Virus record (IMG/VR): IMGVR_UViG_2648501299_000008
Source of the DNA: a virus
Taxonomy: Duplodnaviria; Heunggongvirae; Uroviricota; Caudoviricetes
Reading direction: 5' to 3' (one strand)
Length of the DNA stretch: 43,241 nt
The notes beneath the pieces are model-generated. The model did not search any database, was not told the origin of the DNA, and worked only from the letters and a program-made list of their open reading frames with translations. A program made the translations under genes and the position numbers. Shown in pieces: positions 2,538-23,849 of this stretch. How positions within the stretch are numbered: the stretch's first letter is position 1; each line of letters starts with the position of its first letter.

Positions 2538-3514
2538 GCATACTCCATAATAATAATGACACCGGGCGCGCCGTTACCACCAGCTTTCCCAGCACCACTA
2601 GAGCCAGAAAACGCGCCGCTACCGCCAGACCCGTAACCTGCACCATTGTTGCCTACCACGGACAGACTCCCTCCTGAACCGACATGGTTACCGCCAGAAC
2701 CCAGAGGATTACCACCTCCTCTACCTGAAAGCCCAGTCCCGATAGCTAAACCCTGGCCGCCCGCTTCACCATCAATGGAAACTATATTTGCGCCAGTGCA
2801 CGGCGCTGTTTTTGTCTGAATTGACTGGCATACGCTTGGAACTGTAAATGAGTTAGACGCCAGACCACTGCTGCCGCCAGGGCAGGTCATTATTGTGCCA
2901 AAAATAGTGTCTCCACCTGCACCACCGATATTGGCACCAGTACTGGATGCTGAACCTGTCCCACCATTCCCACCAGCACCAATAGTTACTGATATCGGCC
3001 CTGTAATCGTGAACTTAGTCTCACCATACGATCCAGAGTTTCCACCCGCAGCTGACGACACCTGCCCAGATGGTGGTGTCGAACTCCCACCACCACCTGC
3101 ACCACCACCGACTCCACGTCCAATGCCAAATTTTGCCCCAGGTGTTGGGGTATACATTCCCGATGAGGTGATAACTTTCACGCCCACTAAACGTCCAACC
3201 GTTGACGACCCAAGCCCTCCTACTAATTGAAGGTTTGTGAGAGCCGTAGAAATCGCCGCTGCACCATCTGATTTGATATCGGCAAATGGGTTTGCACGGC
3301 TCAGTGTGAGTTTTTGAATGGCTTTTAAAACCTGAGTCATATCGTTAATGTCGAGCGCCAATCCTGCTGACTCTACGATATGCGCTAACTCTTCCTGCAT
3401 GGCATTAAACGCTGCTGCCCGCAGCCTCGTTGCGGCAATACCACCAGCAACACTTCCATCAGTATATTTGCCATCCTGCGTTGCAGTGGCTTCGACTTGC
3501 CCGATTCGGAGCAT
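2534..3514 (-). CDS. tail fibre protein, glycine-rich
   Basis: 326 aa; conserved-looking N-terminal attachment region followed by long Gly/Ser/Thr-rich repeats. GAGGA Shine-Dalgarno before the ATG at 3514. Sits distal to the baseplate genes. Confidence 0.7.
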   Translation of the reverse strand: MLRIGQVEATATQDGKYTDGSVAGGIAATRLRAAAFNAMQEELAHIVESAGLALDINDMTQVLKAIQKLTLSRANPFADIKSDGAAAISTALTNLQLVGGLGSSTVGRLVGVKVITSSGMYTPTPGAKFGIGRGVGGGAGGGGSSTPPSGQVSSAAGGNSGSYGETKFTITGPISVTIGAGGNGGTGSASSTGANIGGAGGDTIFGTIMTCPGGSSGLASNSFTVPSVCQSIQTKTAPCTGANIVSIDGEAGGQGLAIGTGLSGRGGGNPLGSGGNHVGSGGSLSVVGNNGAGYGSGGSGAFSGSSGAGKAGGNGAPGVIIIMEYA

Positions 3515-3565
3515 AGTTAATCCTCACTTAGTGTTAAGCGATAAAATCAGAGGGGGAAATATCAG

Positions 3566-4159
3566 TTATGAATAATTGAAAATGATGTTCAGATGGGATG
3601 GGGCAATTTTGTTGATTGAACACTCCAGTTGTTTATTGCCCCACGATGCGAGCGGATCTCCGCAGTAGGACGCGCCAGCAAGCGAATACTTGATCGTTGT
3701 TTGTGGCGCATTTATCCGCCAGGTAAATGGCCACTCGTCACCGTTAAGCGCATCACCGCATACTGACATGCCACTCATAGCGGGCCGGAACTGTGTGATA
3801 GTGATGGTATAACCAAGAGCTGCAGCCACCCGGATGTAATAATCGCGGTTCAGGCCGCCGGTGCTGATTAACTTTGCCACCACGGCGCGCTGGCGATCGC
3901 TGACGCCACCGGATTCACCAATCCCACAATCATCTGGTAACCCCAGAGAGCTTTCCCATTCTGACAACATTACCGTCGCTGTAGGGGGAAAAGCACCAGT
4001 AATCAGGCTTTGCGCATCGTTGTCAGAACGCTGAAACGCGCTGCCCAGTGCCCGTAATACCGCAGCCTGTACCGTTCTTTGCGACCGGGGCCACGCCCTG
4101 CCCGTCGGTAGCAGCGCACCAAGCGCACCGGCATAATCATTTTTTGAAAAGAGGCTCAT
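3566..4159 (-). CDS. tail protein, YmfQ/DUF2313-like (Mu gp48-like)
   Basis: 197 aa; gene order baseplate J -> this gene -> tail fibre, as in e14 and Mu-like tails. Start overlaps the upstream stop. Confidence 0.7.
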   Translation of the reverse strand: MSLFSKNDYAGALGALLPTGRAWPRSQRTVQAAVLRALGSAFQRSDNDAQSLITGAFPPTATVMLSEWESSLGLPDDCGIGESGGVSDRQRAVVAKLISTGGLNRDYYIRVAAALGYTITITQFRPAMSGMSVCGDALNGDEWPFTWRINAPQTTIKYSLAGASYCGDPLASWGNKQLECSINKIAPSHLNIIFNYS

Positions 4160-19771: not shown

Positions 19772-21895
19772 TTATTTCGGCAGGAGTTGCGATATTCGCT
19801 TACGTTTGACCGGCGCTGGTTCTTCAATAACCGCACCCGGCAGCTCGTAATTGATTTTTTCTTCCTGTCCAACTGGCGCTGGCAGGAACTTATCCGGATC
19901 GGCTTCGAGGTTGGCGGCCCGGACGTTGAGTTTTAACCCCATATGTTTGAGACCGCACAGCGCGGCATAGCTGTAAACGAGGCAGTCAAGCGCTTCGTTA
20001 GCTCGTCCTGGTATTGCTTCCCAGATACTGTACCGCTGCCCGGAAATGACTTTGTAAACCAGTCGCTCCGCCAGCAGCTGATTGAAGTACCCGAGATCGC
20101 GATCGTCAGGAAAATGCATATAACCCGCAGCGGCGGCGCCAGGTTTGGGTGGCTCAAGATGCAGGCGACCGCGTATCACGTCTTTCGCTGAGTTAACCCC
20201 CAGAATGACAGGGCGGAAACTGGCTTTGCTTTTCGATGATGGTCGTTTGGTCGGCCAGACAGGATTGCGTTTACCTCCCTGTGCAGACTCCCCCTTAATT
20301 GCCCAGACACGACGGCCAAGACGCTCTTTGGCGAATTCGTATACCTTCTGCGTATGGTGGCCACCGGAGTCCATGCACGTTGCCATGATATTCAGGCCGC
20401 GCCCGTCACCACGTCGCCAGATCTGTTTCAGGTATGCATCCAGTCGCTTCCAGGGTTCTTCCGTCTCAAGGTCACCATAAATAACGTCATGCGCGACAGA
20501 CCACGATTCTTCATCTCTCCCCCAGCCGGTGATCGTAATTTCGAAGCGATCGTCCTGGGTATCAACTCCAGCTGTTAACAATGCCACCCCGTCCGGAACG
20601 ACGGCCGGAAATATTTCCCGGCGCGCCAGCAGAACATCAACAGGGAGCTGTTTCCCATGATTAGGTCGGTGCGGAAGCCCCATCTGGGTATTCCACCACG
20701 CCTGTTCCTTATCCGGATCGCCCTTCGCATCGATATATTTTTTCGCAATATCCGACGGCTTATCTTTTTGCCAGGGGCTGAAAAGCTTGGATGCCTGGTA
20801 CCCCGCGTGGTGGTTATCGACTGCCTCCTTTCCACAGGAGGGGCAGATTGCGCGATAGACCGCATGCCGTTCCGACTCTGACCATTGCCAGACCTTTTCA
20901 ACGCTGCCCTCGTCTGCCGCCCGCCAGGCAAGGTCATAATCCATCAGCGGTGAGTGCCGCTCCCCGCAGCACTCAAATGGGCGCGTCTGATGCCATCGAA
21001 TAGTTTGCAGAGCTCTGAGGCGCTGTCCTTCGGACCAGCCACTACCACAGCATTCGCAATAGAGCATCGCCGATTTAGTCAGGTGTTTATCTCCCTCTTT
21101 CGGCCACTGAACGTGTTTGAAAAAGTCGGGGAACTGGCGGTGGCCACAGTGCGGGCAAACCACAGATGCCCGGCGCTGATCGGAGTCGGCGTAGCTGTCA
21201 GCAATGCGGCTCTCATCCTCCACCGTCGGCGAACAGGCGCGTACAGACAGCCAGGTCAGGCCAAATGTCGCTGTACGCTCTTCGGCCAGCGCAATTGGAT
21301 CGCCTTCGCGGGTTATCGGGTACTTGTCCACTTCATCCGCCAGCAGGACACGAATCGGACGACGCGCAAGGTTATCAGGGCTACCAGCACCCGCCAGCGC
21401 CAGAAATCCGCCAGTGAACGCCTTGTAAAGAATGGTTTCTTTCGAGCTTTTCTGTTTCGAATCACCGATGATTTTACGCAGTACCGGCGTCACCCTTACC
21501 AGCGGGCTAATACGCTCTTTCGAAAACTGTTCAGCGGCTTCTTCTTTCGGCTGCAGCAGCAGTATCGGACAAGGATCGAGGTGGGCAAAATAGCCAAAAA
21601 GGTTTTCCAGCAGTGCTGTCTTCATCAACTGGGTACAGCACATTACAGTGATGATATGAACCCCGGACTCCGTCGCGGCAAGCATCGGTCCGCGGGCAAT
21701 TTCTACCGTCGATGTTTCCCAGTTTCCCGAAGTGCTCCCAGCCTCTTTTGCCAGCTTACGATAGTCATCTGCCCACTGCGGCACACTGATACGCGGCGGG
21801 GGTGTCCAGCCTTTGCGGACGCTTAATTCAAGACGCTCAATCTTCTGCCGGGTTAAACTCTGGCTCTCCGAGGACTGAGATGTGTTTGTGGACAT
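19772..21895 (-). CDS. terminase large subunit, lambda gpA-like
   Basis: About 707 aa from the ATG at 21893-21895 (tool ORF starts at TTG 21901). Overlaps the 3' end of the small-subunit gene. Confidence 0.9.
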   Translation of the reverse strand: MSTNTSQSSESQSLTRQKIERLELSVRKGWTPPPRISVPQWADDYRKLAKEAGSTSGNWETSTVEIARGPMLAATESGVHIITVMCCTQLMKTALLENLFGYFAHLDPCPILLLQPKEEAAEQFSKERISPLVRVTPVLRKIIGDSKQKSSKETILYKAFTGGFLALAGAGSPDNLARRPIRVLLADEVDKYPITREGDPIALAEERTATFGLTWLSVRACSPTVEDESRIADSYADSDQRRASVVCPHCGHRQFPDFFKHVQWPKEGDKHLTKSAMLYCECCGSGWSEGQRLRALQTIRWHQTRPFECCGERHSPLMDYDLAWRAADEGSVEKVWQWSESERHAVYRAICPSCGKEAVDNHHAGYQASKLFSPWQKDKPSDIAKKYIDAKGDPDKEQAWWNTQMGLPHRPNHGKQLPVDVLLARREIFPAVVPDGVALLTAGVDTQDDRFEITITGWGRDEESWSVAHDVIYGDLETEEPWKRLDAYLKQIWRRGDGRGLNIMATCMDSGGHHTQKVYEFAKERLGRRVWAIKGESAQGGKRNPVWPTKRPSSKSKASFRPVILGVNSAKDVIRGRLHLEPPKPGAAAAGYMHFPDDRDLGYFNQLLAERLVYKVISGQRYSIWEAIPGRANEALDCLVYSYAALCGLKHMGLKLNVRAANLEADPDKFLPAPVGQEEKINYELPGAVIEEPAPVKRKRISQLLPK

Positions 21896-22406
21896 GTTCA
21901 ATCAGCACCTCTGTCATCCTGTCCGCCGGTACATCCAGATCAGCAGCCATTAGCGGCGCCACCCTGGACGGCCAGTTAAGCCAGGCATCACGCTGTTGGC
22001 GAAAGGCGTTGAATAAAACCTCCTCGGCTGCTGTCAGCTCAATAAGCTGGCCGCTGTCTTTTTCATACTGCAGCTTTGCCTGCAGGGCCATGTAATTCTC
22101 GCGGATACGTCCCGCTTCCTCTCTCGAAAGATCTGCCCCTTCAGTGAGCATTATCTGGCGGACAGTTTTATTGATTTCATCACCGTCATCATCGTTATCG
22201 CTAACGACGGGAGTTTTCTTTTTCTTCGCGTTCGAGGCGCGCGGGTCTTTGCCATCGCGGTTTTTCTTCAATGCCGCATCGCTGGCCTCTACGTCAATCA
22301 GGTCTCCGTCCATCACAATGAAGCGCCCGGCTTTAATCCACCGACCAATTGTTTTGCGATCCACACCTGAATGTTGTGCGTACTGACTCTGGTTCATCGT
22401 GGTCAT
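21837..22406 (-). CDS. terminase small subunit, Nu1-like
   Basis: 189 aa with an N-terminal HTH-like segment (DRKTIGRWIKAGRF). Lies immediately downstream of the GGGACAT repeat array. Confidence 0.7.
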   Translation of the reverse strand: MTTMNQSQYAQHSGVDRKTIGRWIKAGRFIVMDGDLIDVEASDAALKKNRDGKDPRASNAKKKKTPVVSDNDDDGDEINKTVRQIMLTEGADLSREEAGRIRENYMALQAKLQYEKDSGQLIELTAAEEVLFNAFRQQRDAWLNWPSRVAPLMAADLDVPADRMTEVLIEHVHKHISVLGEPEFNPAED

Positions 22407-22554
22407 GGGACATCACCTGGGACATTTTCTGGGGTGGGACATTCGCCTGGGACATTTTTGCCATGTCCCACCAGAATGTCCCACTGGAATAAACTGGAAT
22501 AGCCAGAGCTGGCGAGGTGTCCGTAATGATCGCCAGAGGTGGGACATGGGACAC
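22407..22554. repeat. direct/inverted GGGACAT repeat array upstream of the small terminase gene (candidate cosB or pac-like terminase binding sites)
   Basis: GGGACAT at 22407, 22419, 22436, 22449 and 22541; inverted ATGTCCC at 22463 and 22476; variant GGGACAC at 22548; CTGGAAT twice at 22484-22500. Confidence 0.5.
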
Positions 22555-22696
22555 AAATCTGAAAGTTGTAGCTAGGAAAACACCGCGGCGCGCAATGCCC
22601 GTACCTTACAAAAGTCTCAGGAAGGACCCATTTTTTTATTGGCTTCGACCATTCGCTCCGACTATGATTATTCCTATTCAATACAAGGAGAATGTA

Positions 22697-23200
22697 ATGG
22701 GTAACAATATAATCAAAATAACTTTCGTAGCCGCAGTGCTGGCATCACCAATTGCTCATGCCCAGTGGGTAACTAATACTGAAGATGACCTTTTCTCTGG
22801 TGGTAAGAAAGCAATGATGCTTGGCGAGGTTTCATCCGACAATGGCGCCATTGTGTTTGACTGCACTAAAGAAAAGCTATCGGCGGCATACGTTGAAATG
22901 GATAAAAGCACCGAATCACTATCAGAGGTACCAATGGACCTGATAATGAAGGTCGACGGGAATACCGCAGTGAAGCTCGATGCTACCCTTTCAAGACGTA
23001 ATGTTCAGAGCCTCCAGATTCAATCGGATGACGCGGACCAACTAAAAACAGTGCTTAAGCAGCTTCAGGGGGCGAAATCCAAAGTGTTAGTTGGTGTGCA
23101 AACAAAGGATGGCGGAAACCAGCATTCCATGTCAGCCAATGTTTCTGGATCGACAACTGCAGTAAACAGCTTCATAAAAGCTTGCGAAATTAACTTATAA
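22697..23200 (+). CDS. secreted/periplasmic protein of unknown function (moron)
   Basis: 167 aa from the ATG at 22697 with AAGGAG 7 nt upstream. Predicted signal peptide MGNNIIKITFVAAVLASPIAHA|QW. Opposite strand to the late operon. Confidence 0.55.
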   Translation: MGNNIIKITFVAAVLASPIAHAQWVTNTEDDLFSGGKKAMMLGEVSSDNGAIVFDCTKEKLSAAYVEMDKSTESLSEVPMDLIMKVDGNTAVKLDATLSRRNVQSLQIQSDDADQLKTVLKQLQGAKSKVLVGVQTKDGGNQHSMSANVSGSTTAVNSFIKACEINL

Positions 23201-23210
23201 GTTACTGCTT

Positions 23211-23849
23211 TTATTTTGCCGTCCTGATGGCTTCTGCTATCGCCTGATTTAAAGCAGACGGTAGCAGTGCGTTCGCCATGGTACGGGCCCTATCCATATA
23301 CCCCAGCACTGGAGTCACAGGTAGCGCATCACCAAACCGGATCAAAAGCTTTGGAGAACGCTGTTTGCGTTTCGGTCTTCGCGTCCCGTTAGCGGAACGT
23401 TTGGCCCGTCGCTTCTTAGCTTTCATCGGCTTCTTACGCTGCCAGACAGCGTTAACGCCATCAACCTCACCTACGAATACATTTTCCTTTGCTTTAAGCT
23501 GTGAGAGCTTATTACGCGGCATGTTGCCGTATTTGTTTAGCTTGACGTTCTTGGGGTTCAATAGCGCTTGGCTATTGAGCTTATGCTCTCCACCTAACTC
23601 GAATGGTTCCAGATAACCAGCCGCGGTATCGCGGACAAAAACCTTTGCAGTCAGGTTGTTCTTCCTTGCCGCCACCGAACCAACTGATTTAACGGTAAAC
23701 GGTGTCGGGCTCTCCAGATGTCGTTCGAACGCTGTTTTCTGTGCCGTTTCTATTTGACGAACAACTTTTGTCATAGCTAGTGCTGTAGCATATGGCACCT
23801 GCTTTTGTACCTTCTTTAATTGCTGAGAAAGGTCTTTGAGTGTTGCCAT
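23211..23849 (-). CDS. hypothetical protein with lysine/arginine-rich segment
   Basis: 212 aa from the ATG at 23847-23849; basic tract KKPMKAKKRRAKRSANGTRRPKRKQR; no family recognised. Confidence 0.45.
   Translation of the reverse strand: MATLKDLSQQLKKVQKQVPYATALAMTKVVRQIETAQKTAFERHLESPTPFTVKSVGSVAARKNNLTAKVFVRDTAAGYLEPFELGGEHKLNSQALLNPKNVKLNKYGNMPRNKLSQLKAKENVFVGEVDGVNAVWQRKKPMKAKKRRAKRSANGTRRPKRKQRSPKLLIRFGDALPVTPVLGYMDRARTMANALLPSALNQAIAEAIRTAK

Follow-up and report, generated by a model that had tools for sequence, protein, structure and literature searches.

The closest described counterpart of the locus studied here is the cos packaging site of phage lambda, in which the subsites follow the order cosQ-cosN-cosB and cosB carries three 16-bp R sites. 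Of these, R3 occupies bp 50-65 (PMC9026076) and R2 is opposite in orientation to R3 and R1 (PMC4669245, PMC9026076). The phage pairs lambda/21 and N15/Monarch have served the Feiss laboratory to describe packaging-specificity classes as well as complex and simple forms of cosB (PMC4669245, PMC9026076). In lambda and 21, the N-terminus of the small terminase subunit (TerS) sets the specificity for cosB, while its C-terminus binds the large subunit (TerL) (PMC9026076). For Serratia phage vB_SspM_BZS1 (hereafter BZS1), the cohesive end was determined with PhageTerm and confirmed by virion DNA end sequences compared with the prophage junction; that paper maps the ends, and cosB repeats are not described in it (PMC7556043). 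Here we analysed an array of short repeats at 22406-22554 in a 43,241-bp stretch of tailed-phage DNA, IMG/VR virus record IMGVR_UViG_2648501299_000008 (hereafter the window), which is an Escherichia coli prophage. Judged from sequence comparison, the array is very probably the cosB subsite of a lambda-type cos packaging site. The kind of element is well known and the motif is undescribed; among the papers searched, none reports this motif or a cosB for the group of BZS1 and Citrobacter phage phiNP.

The original prediction listed at least five direct and two inverted copies of GGGACAT, and this count was borne out. All seven exact copies in the window, counted on both strands, lie within 22407-22547, five of them on the plus strand (starting at 22407, 22419, 22436, 22449 and 22541) and two inverted (22463-22469 and 22476-22482). 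With an eighth, variant copy, GGGACAC, at 22548-22554, the better repeat unit is TGGGACA(T), and eight of the 11 TGGGACA copies of the window are found inside the 148 bp from 22406 to 22553. This is the densest cluster of any 7-mer in the window. The maximum for any 7-mer in 100 simulated first-order Markov windows was 3-5 copies per 150 bp, and the expectation from composition was 0.019 TGGGACA copies per 150 bp. The proximal direct copies are spaced by 12, 17 and 13 bp and the inverted pair by 13 bp, in agreement with the 12-17 bp first proposed, a range that leaves out the 7-bp spacing of the distal head-to-tail pair. A CTGGAAT pair had also been noticed and is present as two copies of ACTGGAATA (22483-22491 and 22493-22501). 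The inverted copies together with two adjoining direct copies give a 22-nt inverted repeat with 86% complementarity. The single-strand folding energy of the array was low (z = -3.8); as this follows from the inverted repeat copies, it was not taken as evidence for a hairpin function in RNA or DNA. No Rfam family was found in a scan of the array, the sole match being a miRNA-like one by chance, far under threshold.

On the minus strand, the elements are arranged in the order cosQ (22629-22623), cosN (22598-22587), cosB (22554-22406), terS and terL. The putative cosN core GCATTGCGCGCC (22587-22598, minus strand), which would leave a 12-nt 5' cohesive end, lies 33 bp beyond the array and is flanked by ACGG (22599-22602) and GCGG (22583-22586). 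This 12-mer is identical to the 12-nt left cohesive end of BZS1 (cosL, annotated at the start of the GenBank record), and the flanks of the two are closely similar on both sides. From this identity we infer the nick positions in the window prophage to within about 1 nt. A GC-rich nicking site had been suspected at about 22580-22595, and this was essentially right, as the GC-rich CCGCGGCGCGC (22583-22593) overlaps the 12-mer shared with BZS1. The 12-mer is invariant in seven of seven close relatives and exact in most of about 170 loci. Of 49 related genome loci, nearly all have it either exact or with one or two mismatches; these loci came from Escherichia, Kluyvera, Citrobacter, Salmonella, Raoultella, Edwardsiella, Providencia, Morganella, Xenorhabdus, Photorhabdus, Serratia, Yersinia, Erwinia and Paraburkholderia. 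True metagenome contig ends near the 12-mer were found in two loci only (L133 at bp 11 and L211 at bp 14), which is anecdotal and too few to count. Apparent ends at cos in two other loci (L062 and L077) were discarded as record boundaries inside longer contigs.

A cosQ-like heptamer, GGGTCCT, is located at 22623-22629 on the minus strand within GGGTCCTTCC (22620-22629). It is the same heptamer as in lambda and lies upstream of the 12-mer, the distance from its start to the first 12-mer base being 31 bp, compared with 30 bp in lambda. It is among the most conserved positions of the family, being kept in essentially all related loci, even in an alphaproteobacterial (Hyphomicrobiales) metagenome-assembled genome (MAG). 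By analogy with lambda, it would act in the termination of packaging (PMC4669245). The lambda right end reads ...GGGTCCTTTCC-N19-|GGGCGGCGACCT and the window GGGTCCTTCC-N21-|GCATTGCGCGCC. The flanking bases ACGG...GCGG.GTTTTC.CTA align exactly between the window (22583-22602) and lambda (bp -4 to +16). In an ungapped comparison from cosQ to +35, 36 of 78 positions were identical to lambda, and none of 10,000 shuffles reached that value. On sequence alignment the cosQ and cosN flanks are recognisably homologous to those of lambda. In the register of these flanks the mapped nick of BZS1 is 1 nt to the right of that of lambda, and the cosQ distance is shifted by the same 1 nt, which is either a true difference in register or a mapping uncertainty of 1 nt. 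Between cosN and the first repeats there is a conserved segment, GCGGTGTTTTCCTAGCTACAACTTTCAGATTTG on the terS strand (22555-22586, minus strand), in register with lambda bp 13-45. Its consensus across loci is GCG.t.Ttt..cTAgcTat.aa.TTttgaaaTttg, and it may be a contact for TerL or a host factor.

The position of the array had been compared with that of lambda cosB, and the position, order and orientation of its sites match lambda. Counted from the cohesive end, direct copies of TGTCCCA (the motif on the terS strand) are found at bp 46, 53, 145, 158, 175 and 187 and inverted ones at bp 116 and 129, and the ATG is at bp 193. In lambda, the CGTTTCC core is found at bp 53 in R3 and at bp 155 in R1, both direct, and at bp 114 in the inverted R2, and Nu1 starts at 191. 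Thus the span of cosB is nearly equal in the two, and direct, inverted and direct sites follow at nearly the same bp. The R3-equivalent is the distal head-to-tail doublet TGTCCCA-TGTCCCA on the terS strand (TGTCCCATGTCCCA; 22540-22554, minus strand, bp 46-59). The R2-equivalent is the inverted pair (22463-22483, bp 116-136), with ATGTCCCA on the plus strand at 22463-22470 and 22476-22483. As its orientation is opposite to that of the other six copies, the array obeys the lambda rule for R2. The R1-equivalent consists of four proximal direct copies (22406-22455, minus strand, bp 144-193), with TGGGACAT on the plus strand at 22406, 22418, 22435 and 22448. The last two of these bracket the terS Shine-Dalgarno sequence (AGGTGA) and the final one abuts the ATG. 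Each lambda R site (R3, R2 and R1) is replaced by two, two and four short units, respectively. The motif TGTCCCA itself differs from the lambda core CGTTTCC, as had been stated. An overhang of 12 nt, taken for the window from BZS1, would be shared with lambda as well.

Conservation was evaluated over the columns of seven Enterobacteriaceae loci that carry the same motif. Variable columns numbered 2 of 63 in the repeats, against 14 of 30 in the proximal linkers and 23 of 56 in the spacer (Fisher p = 8e-7). Of the 12 columns of the cos 12-mer none varied, and the proximal and inverted copies were conserved as strongly as the doublet. In relatives from Morganella and Xenorhabdus, whose TerS is about 44% identical, the spacer can no longer be aligned, yet the motif, the position of the doublet and the pattern of orientations are all retained. 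These patterns in the alignments indicate that the repeat positions are under purifying selection across genera. The spacer is located at the position of lambda I1 (22484-22539, 56 bp) and contains the tandem ACTGGAATA copies (from 22483 to 22501), CGCCAG and GATC (22528-22531). The GATC (a Dam site), CGCCAG and the tandem ACTGGAATA beside the inverted copies are kept in all seven loci despite the variable spacer, and these features could be host-factor or accessory sites. In the Xenorhabdus, Providencia and Morganella relatives, the spacer is AT-rich.

The motif had been proposed to mark a distinct packaging specificity, and comparison over about 170 loci is in agreement with this: cosQ and cosN stay constant while every change of repeat motif goes with a change of the TerS N-terminus. 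Among 46 genome loci, TGTCCC repeats were found only with a TerS of the type YA.H.GV[DN]RKTI (class A, that of the window) and GGTAAC repeats only with the type FA.LH.VSRKTV (class B). Class A repeats and TerS occurred together in 11 loci and class B repeats and TerS in 34, with no mixed locus; one locus, in a Hyphomicrobiales MAG (L020), had neither repeat type. A set of 129 IMG/VR loci, picked by a pattern spanning cosQ and cosN only, gave 90 class A and 35 class B loci and no discordant one. A separate scan for the class A doublet gave 113 loci with 78 distinct cosB sequences, all with a class A TerS and with 4-8 direct and 1-3 inverted copies. In full, class A combines TGTCCCA (terS strand) with TerS ...YA.H.GV[DN]RKT[IV].RW[IVM]..., and class B, to which BZS1, phiNP and many others belong, combines GGTAACA with TerS ...FA.LH.VSRKT[VI]T.WK.RG.... 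Classes A and B are told apart at TerS residues 12-13, 16 and 24-26. Two further classes were each found in one locus within the 129, in the first 300 bp beyond the cos 12-mer, each with its own TerS N-terminus. Class C (L191, IMG/VR 2882471735_000005) has TTCACAC/GTGTGAA and TerS MLMSVSRYAEHAGMSRRAFYNWESKTG..., and class D (L231) has TTGACAC/GTGTCAA and TerS MSLMSVSQYAKHAGMSRQALYTWEAKQG.... At the R3-equivalent position, the other classes carry GGTAACAGGTAACA, TTCACAC-type or TTGACAC-type repeats, and in all classes the first doublet is at a fixed distance from the cos 12-mer. The covariation with the TerS N-terminal domain points to the motif as the mark of a distinct specificity. On these alignments the repeat and that domain form one of at least four exchangeable packaging specificities on a single cosQ/cosN core. 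The motifs of classes C and D are one base apart and constitute a natural pair for mapping recognition contacts.

A natural chimera is seen in an E. coli prophage (L004), where the exchange is confined to the part corresponding to about 22040-22565 of the window. This part comprises the array and roughly the first 120 residues of TerS, both of class B type. The last approximately 75 TerS residues are identical to those of the window. Identity is about 80% for TerL, compared as DNA, 95% for the cosN block (22566-22605) and mostly 75-97% for the flanks. In the chimera, the C-terminal 75 residues of TerS stay with the TerL type. Constant cosQ and cosN with a varying cosB matched by the TerS recognition domain, as well as chimeric TerS proteins, are likewise known from lambda and 21, and by this analogy L004 reproduces the lambda/21 specificity logic in nature. 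The lambda/21 hybrids were made in the laboratory, whereas the chimeras of the window family are natural and at least four motif classes share one cos core.

The arrays also occur in more than one size. Class B has a long form of 190-216 bp, whose 7-8 copies are laid out direct/inverted/direct like those of the window, and a short form of about 73 bp with the doublet and one copy, as in BZS1, phiNP and many others. For class A, the long (complex) form was the only one found. The two class B forms parallel N15 and Monarch, in which complex and simple cosB occur within one specificity (PMC4669245). BZS1 and phiNP share with the window the 12-mer, the cosQ-like element, the cosN-proximal flank, a terS gene directly downstream and a homologue of the BZS1 gene p72 upstream of cos. 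They differ in that GGTAACA is present in three copies, the distance from cos to the ATG is 74 bp, and TerS is of class B, with 28-31% identity overall. Prophages of class A and class B were found together in the single genomes of Salmonella enterica s1 (CP191473.1; L014 and L031) and Xenorhabdus japonica DSM 16522 (L023 and L025), which is consistent with divergence of specificity between co-resident phages.

The array adjoins, as originally described, a minus-strand gene called Nu1-like (21837-22406, start codon at 22406). This terS gene encodes a 189-aa protein that matched PHROG 57 (terminase small subunit) over its full length with E = 4.6e-36, and the same PHROG was matched by lambda Nu1 (1.3e-76) and BZS1 TerS (1.2e-27). 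The gene product is probably a distant homologue of Nu1, related through the shared PHROG. Copies of the protein in RefSeq (e.g. WP_000210383.1) are labelled as hypothetical protein; PHROG 57 identifies them as TerS. An AlphaFold2 model had a mean predicted local distance difference test score (pLDDT) of 69, with about 75 over the N-terminal 50 residues. In the model, helices at residues 6-13 and 17-26 precede a beta wing (31-38), after which come long helices, so that the N-terminus is predicted to be a winged helix-turn-helix (HTH). In lambda Nu1, the recognition helix is formed by residues 17-24 and the wing by residues 31-39 (PMC9026076). A search of PDB with a TerS sequence profile gave weak N-terminal HTH matches only (RppC, E = 0.14; a TerS fragment, E = 1.5). 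The adjacent terL gene (19772-21901, minus strand) encodes a gpA-type large terminase like that of lambda (PF05876 GpA_ATPase, 2.2e-64; PF20454 GpA_nuclease, 2.1e-78) with 48% identity to BZS1 TerL, and its product is the presumed nuclease nicking cosN.

A packaging mechanism can be proposed from these features. The winged HTH of TerS would recognise the 7-8 bp unit TGTCCCA(T) (TGGGACA on the plus strand), as the covariation and conservation suggest, and several TerS DNA-binding domains would fill the doublet, the inverted pair and the four proximal copies. The occupied sites would probably span a spacer that is assumed to be bent, possibly by integration host factor (IHF) or by the sequence itself. 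Anchored in this way by TerS, the gpA-type TerL would make staggered nicks about 12 bp apart at GCATTGCGCGCC. The terminase would remain on the end bearing cosB, and packaging would proceed toward decreasing coordinates through terS, terL and the head and tail genes until, at the next cos, cosQ and cosN would direct the terminating cut.

Several observations weigh against assigning the array to a lambda-type cosB. No match to the IHF consensus WATCAANNNNTTR, itself a weak one, was found with one mismatch or fewer between 22400 and 22700, so that an IHF hairpin in the style of lambda is unsupported here. In place of three 16-bp R sites, there are eight units of 7-8 bp; a doublet with a 7-bp head-to-tail spacing is not readable by two domains on one face of the helix, and the doublet and the 12-17 bp spacings together point to no obvious binding geometry. 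Searches of TerS against Pfam (E <= 0.01), the Nu1 model included, and NCBIfam gave no useful match, and hhalign of TerS with Nu1 was weak (probability 8%). Foldseek gave no significant match for the model (E >= 0.6); the best ones, to BldC, Xis, RppC and a DNA-binding domain of TerS type, were used solely as a hint to the fold class. The nearest isolated phage with mapped ends has just 48% TerL and 31% TerS identity; a near-identity search against isolated phages gave no match, relatives being found at the protein level only. One published definition asks for a 12-base cohesive end closely similar to GGGCGGCGACCT (PMC4669245); the window 12-mer GCATTGCGCGCC shares 5 of 12 positions with that lambda end and is not closely similar to it.

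Other explanations of the array have to be set against the cosB assignment. Short arrays of direct and inverted repeats are typical of operators, a sigma-70-like plus-strand promoter lies near the array (22639-22668) and the proximal copies overlap the terS ribosome-binding region. The repeats might accordingly be read as operators of some transcription factor that is not TerS, acting on the head operon or on a divergent moron (22697-23200), with the proximity to cos being incidental. This we consider highly improbable. A promoter and terminator scan gave no minus-strand (terS-strand) promoter inside the array, and relatives that retain the array lack the moron. Moreover, the motif follows the TerS N-terminus strictly, even in the chimera with nothing else exchanged, and the distance between the first doublet and the 12-mer is fixed in all classes. 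The array might also be a relic in a defective prophage, dead or used only with the terminase of a related helper phage. Prophages often decay, and at least one E. coli genome (L005) has a class A cosB, a cosN variant and cosQ without an adjoining terminase gene. Yet identical RefSeq copies have terS, terL and the head, tail, lysis and regulatory genes annotated as intact. Many strains share the array with 100% identity, and across genera it is under purifying selection, which makes a relic very unlikely.

A further alternative is an autoregulatory function. Here, TerS on the four proximal copies would mainly limit the expression of terS and terL, and only the distal doublet would serve packaging, as a simple cosB. 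As the short-type relatives manage with a doublet and one copy in 73 bp, the extra copies appear dispensable for the basic reaction, and lambda R1 is likewise accessory (PMC4669245). The position of the last two copies around the Shine-Dalgarno sequence and next to the ATG points the same way, so that an added autoregulatory role is possible. However, it is DNA and not mRNA that would be bound, no promoter to be occluded was found, and the proximal and inverted copies are as conserved as the doublet. As the main function of the array, autoregulation is very unlikely, and in any case it would add to a cosB function without excluding it.

Further features bear on the cosB region and its surroundings. 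In BZS1, a near-consensus IHF site, TATCAACTTTTGA, with one mismatch by eye, is present between cosN and the first doublet (L002, bp 20-45), and it may be the counterpart of the cosN-proximal host-factor site of lambda. The corresponding sequence of the window, CTACAACTTTCAG (22555-22575), is a poor IHF match. The pac phages SPP1 and SF6 and the MerR-like protein BldC, which binds direct repeats as monomers, offer a looser parallel, in that an oligomer uses several small HTH domains to bind numerous short repeats, and BldC and the TerS DNA-binding domain 7lw0 were the nearest, non-significant, structural matches of the TerS model. In SPP1 and SF6, however, packaging is headful and there are no cohesive ends; the likeness extends to fold class and logic only and is not taken as membership. 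The orphan cos of L005 mentioned above (3340-3600, E. coli 2015C-4136CT1, beside thiM) consists of about nine class A units containing GGGAC, the variant cosN GCATTGCGCGAG... and cosQ. It adjoins neither terS nor terL and has no TerS-like open reading frame (ORF) nearby, and represents either what is left of a prophage or a cos-only element packageable by a class A helper.

A 951-bp query spanning cos and terS (21800-22750) was 100% identical to copies in many sequenced E. coli strains. According to the annotation of a RefSeq copy, the minus strand carries the morphogenetic and lysis genes. From right to left, these are the lysis genes and several small genes, including a homologue of phiBZS1_p72, then the intergenic region, and then the gene for the 189-aa hypothetical protein, the gpA-type large terminase, gpW, portal, S49 protease, decoration, major capsid and contractile tail genes. 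The repeat array is thus intergenic, directly upstream of the 189-aa gene. Mechanical ORFs over the array (e.g. 22403-22681, minus strand, 92 aa) were rejected as genes, being unannotated in RefSeq and broken by module boundaries. The phiBZS1_p72 homologue (PHROG 1924, minor tail protein; 23211-23849, minus strand) is located just upstream of cos and apart from the tail genes; its conserved position upstream of terS was also remarked by the authors of BZS1. Between them, in the region 22631-23210, a 167-aa gene of unknown function (22697-23200, plus strand; PHROG 19473) encodes a protein with a hydrophobic N-terminus resembling a signal peptide. It stands directly beyond the cosQ-like element with its own sigma-70-like promoter (22639-22668) and is missing in the relatives L004 and L006, whose similarity to the window stops at 22630. 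The gene has the look of a moron that entered at the far right end of the virion chromosome.

A more tentative idea, which we regard as possible but doubtful, is that cosB and the TerS DNA-binding domain form a mobile cassette with at least four alleles (TGTCCCA, GGTAACA, TTCACAC and TTGACAC), which recombines as a unit into phages with a common cosQ/cosN/TerL core. In it, the many short and closely spaced units, among them a four-site palindrome and the doublet, would nucleate a TerS assembly that wraps or bends DNA without IHF. If this were true, the cassette would keep the packaging of co-resident prophages apart, and the geometry of recognition would be unlike the dimer of lambda across an IHF hairpin. 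For the family as a whole, the cosB assignment provides a testable map of packaging signals (cosQ, cosN and cosB) for widespread uncultured prophages of Enterobacterales with lambda-like heads and contractile tails. It may be of use in predicting the cross-packaging of prophages and satellites and in improving the annotation of cos sites and terS genes. Natural specificity swaps on a constant cut site also offer a ready system for studying how small terminases read DNA, and these natural specificity classes sharing one cut site are the most useful by-product of the analysis.

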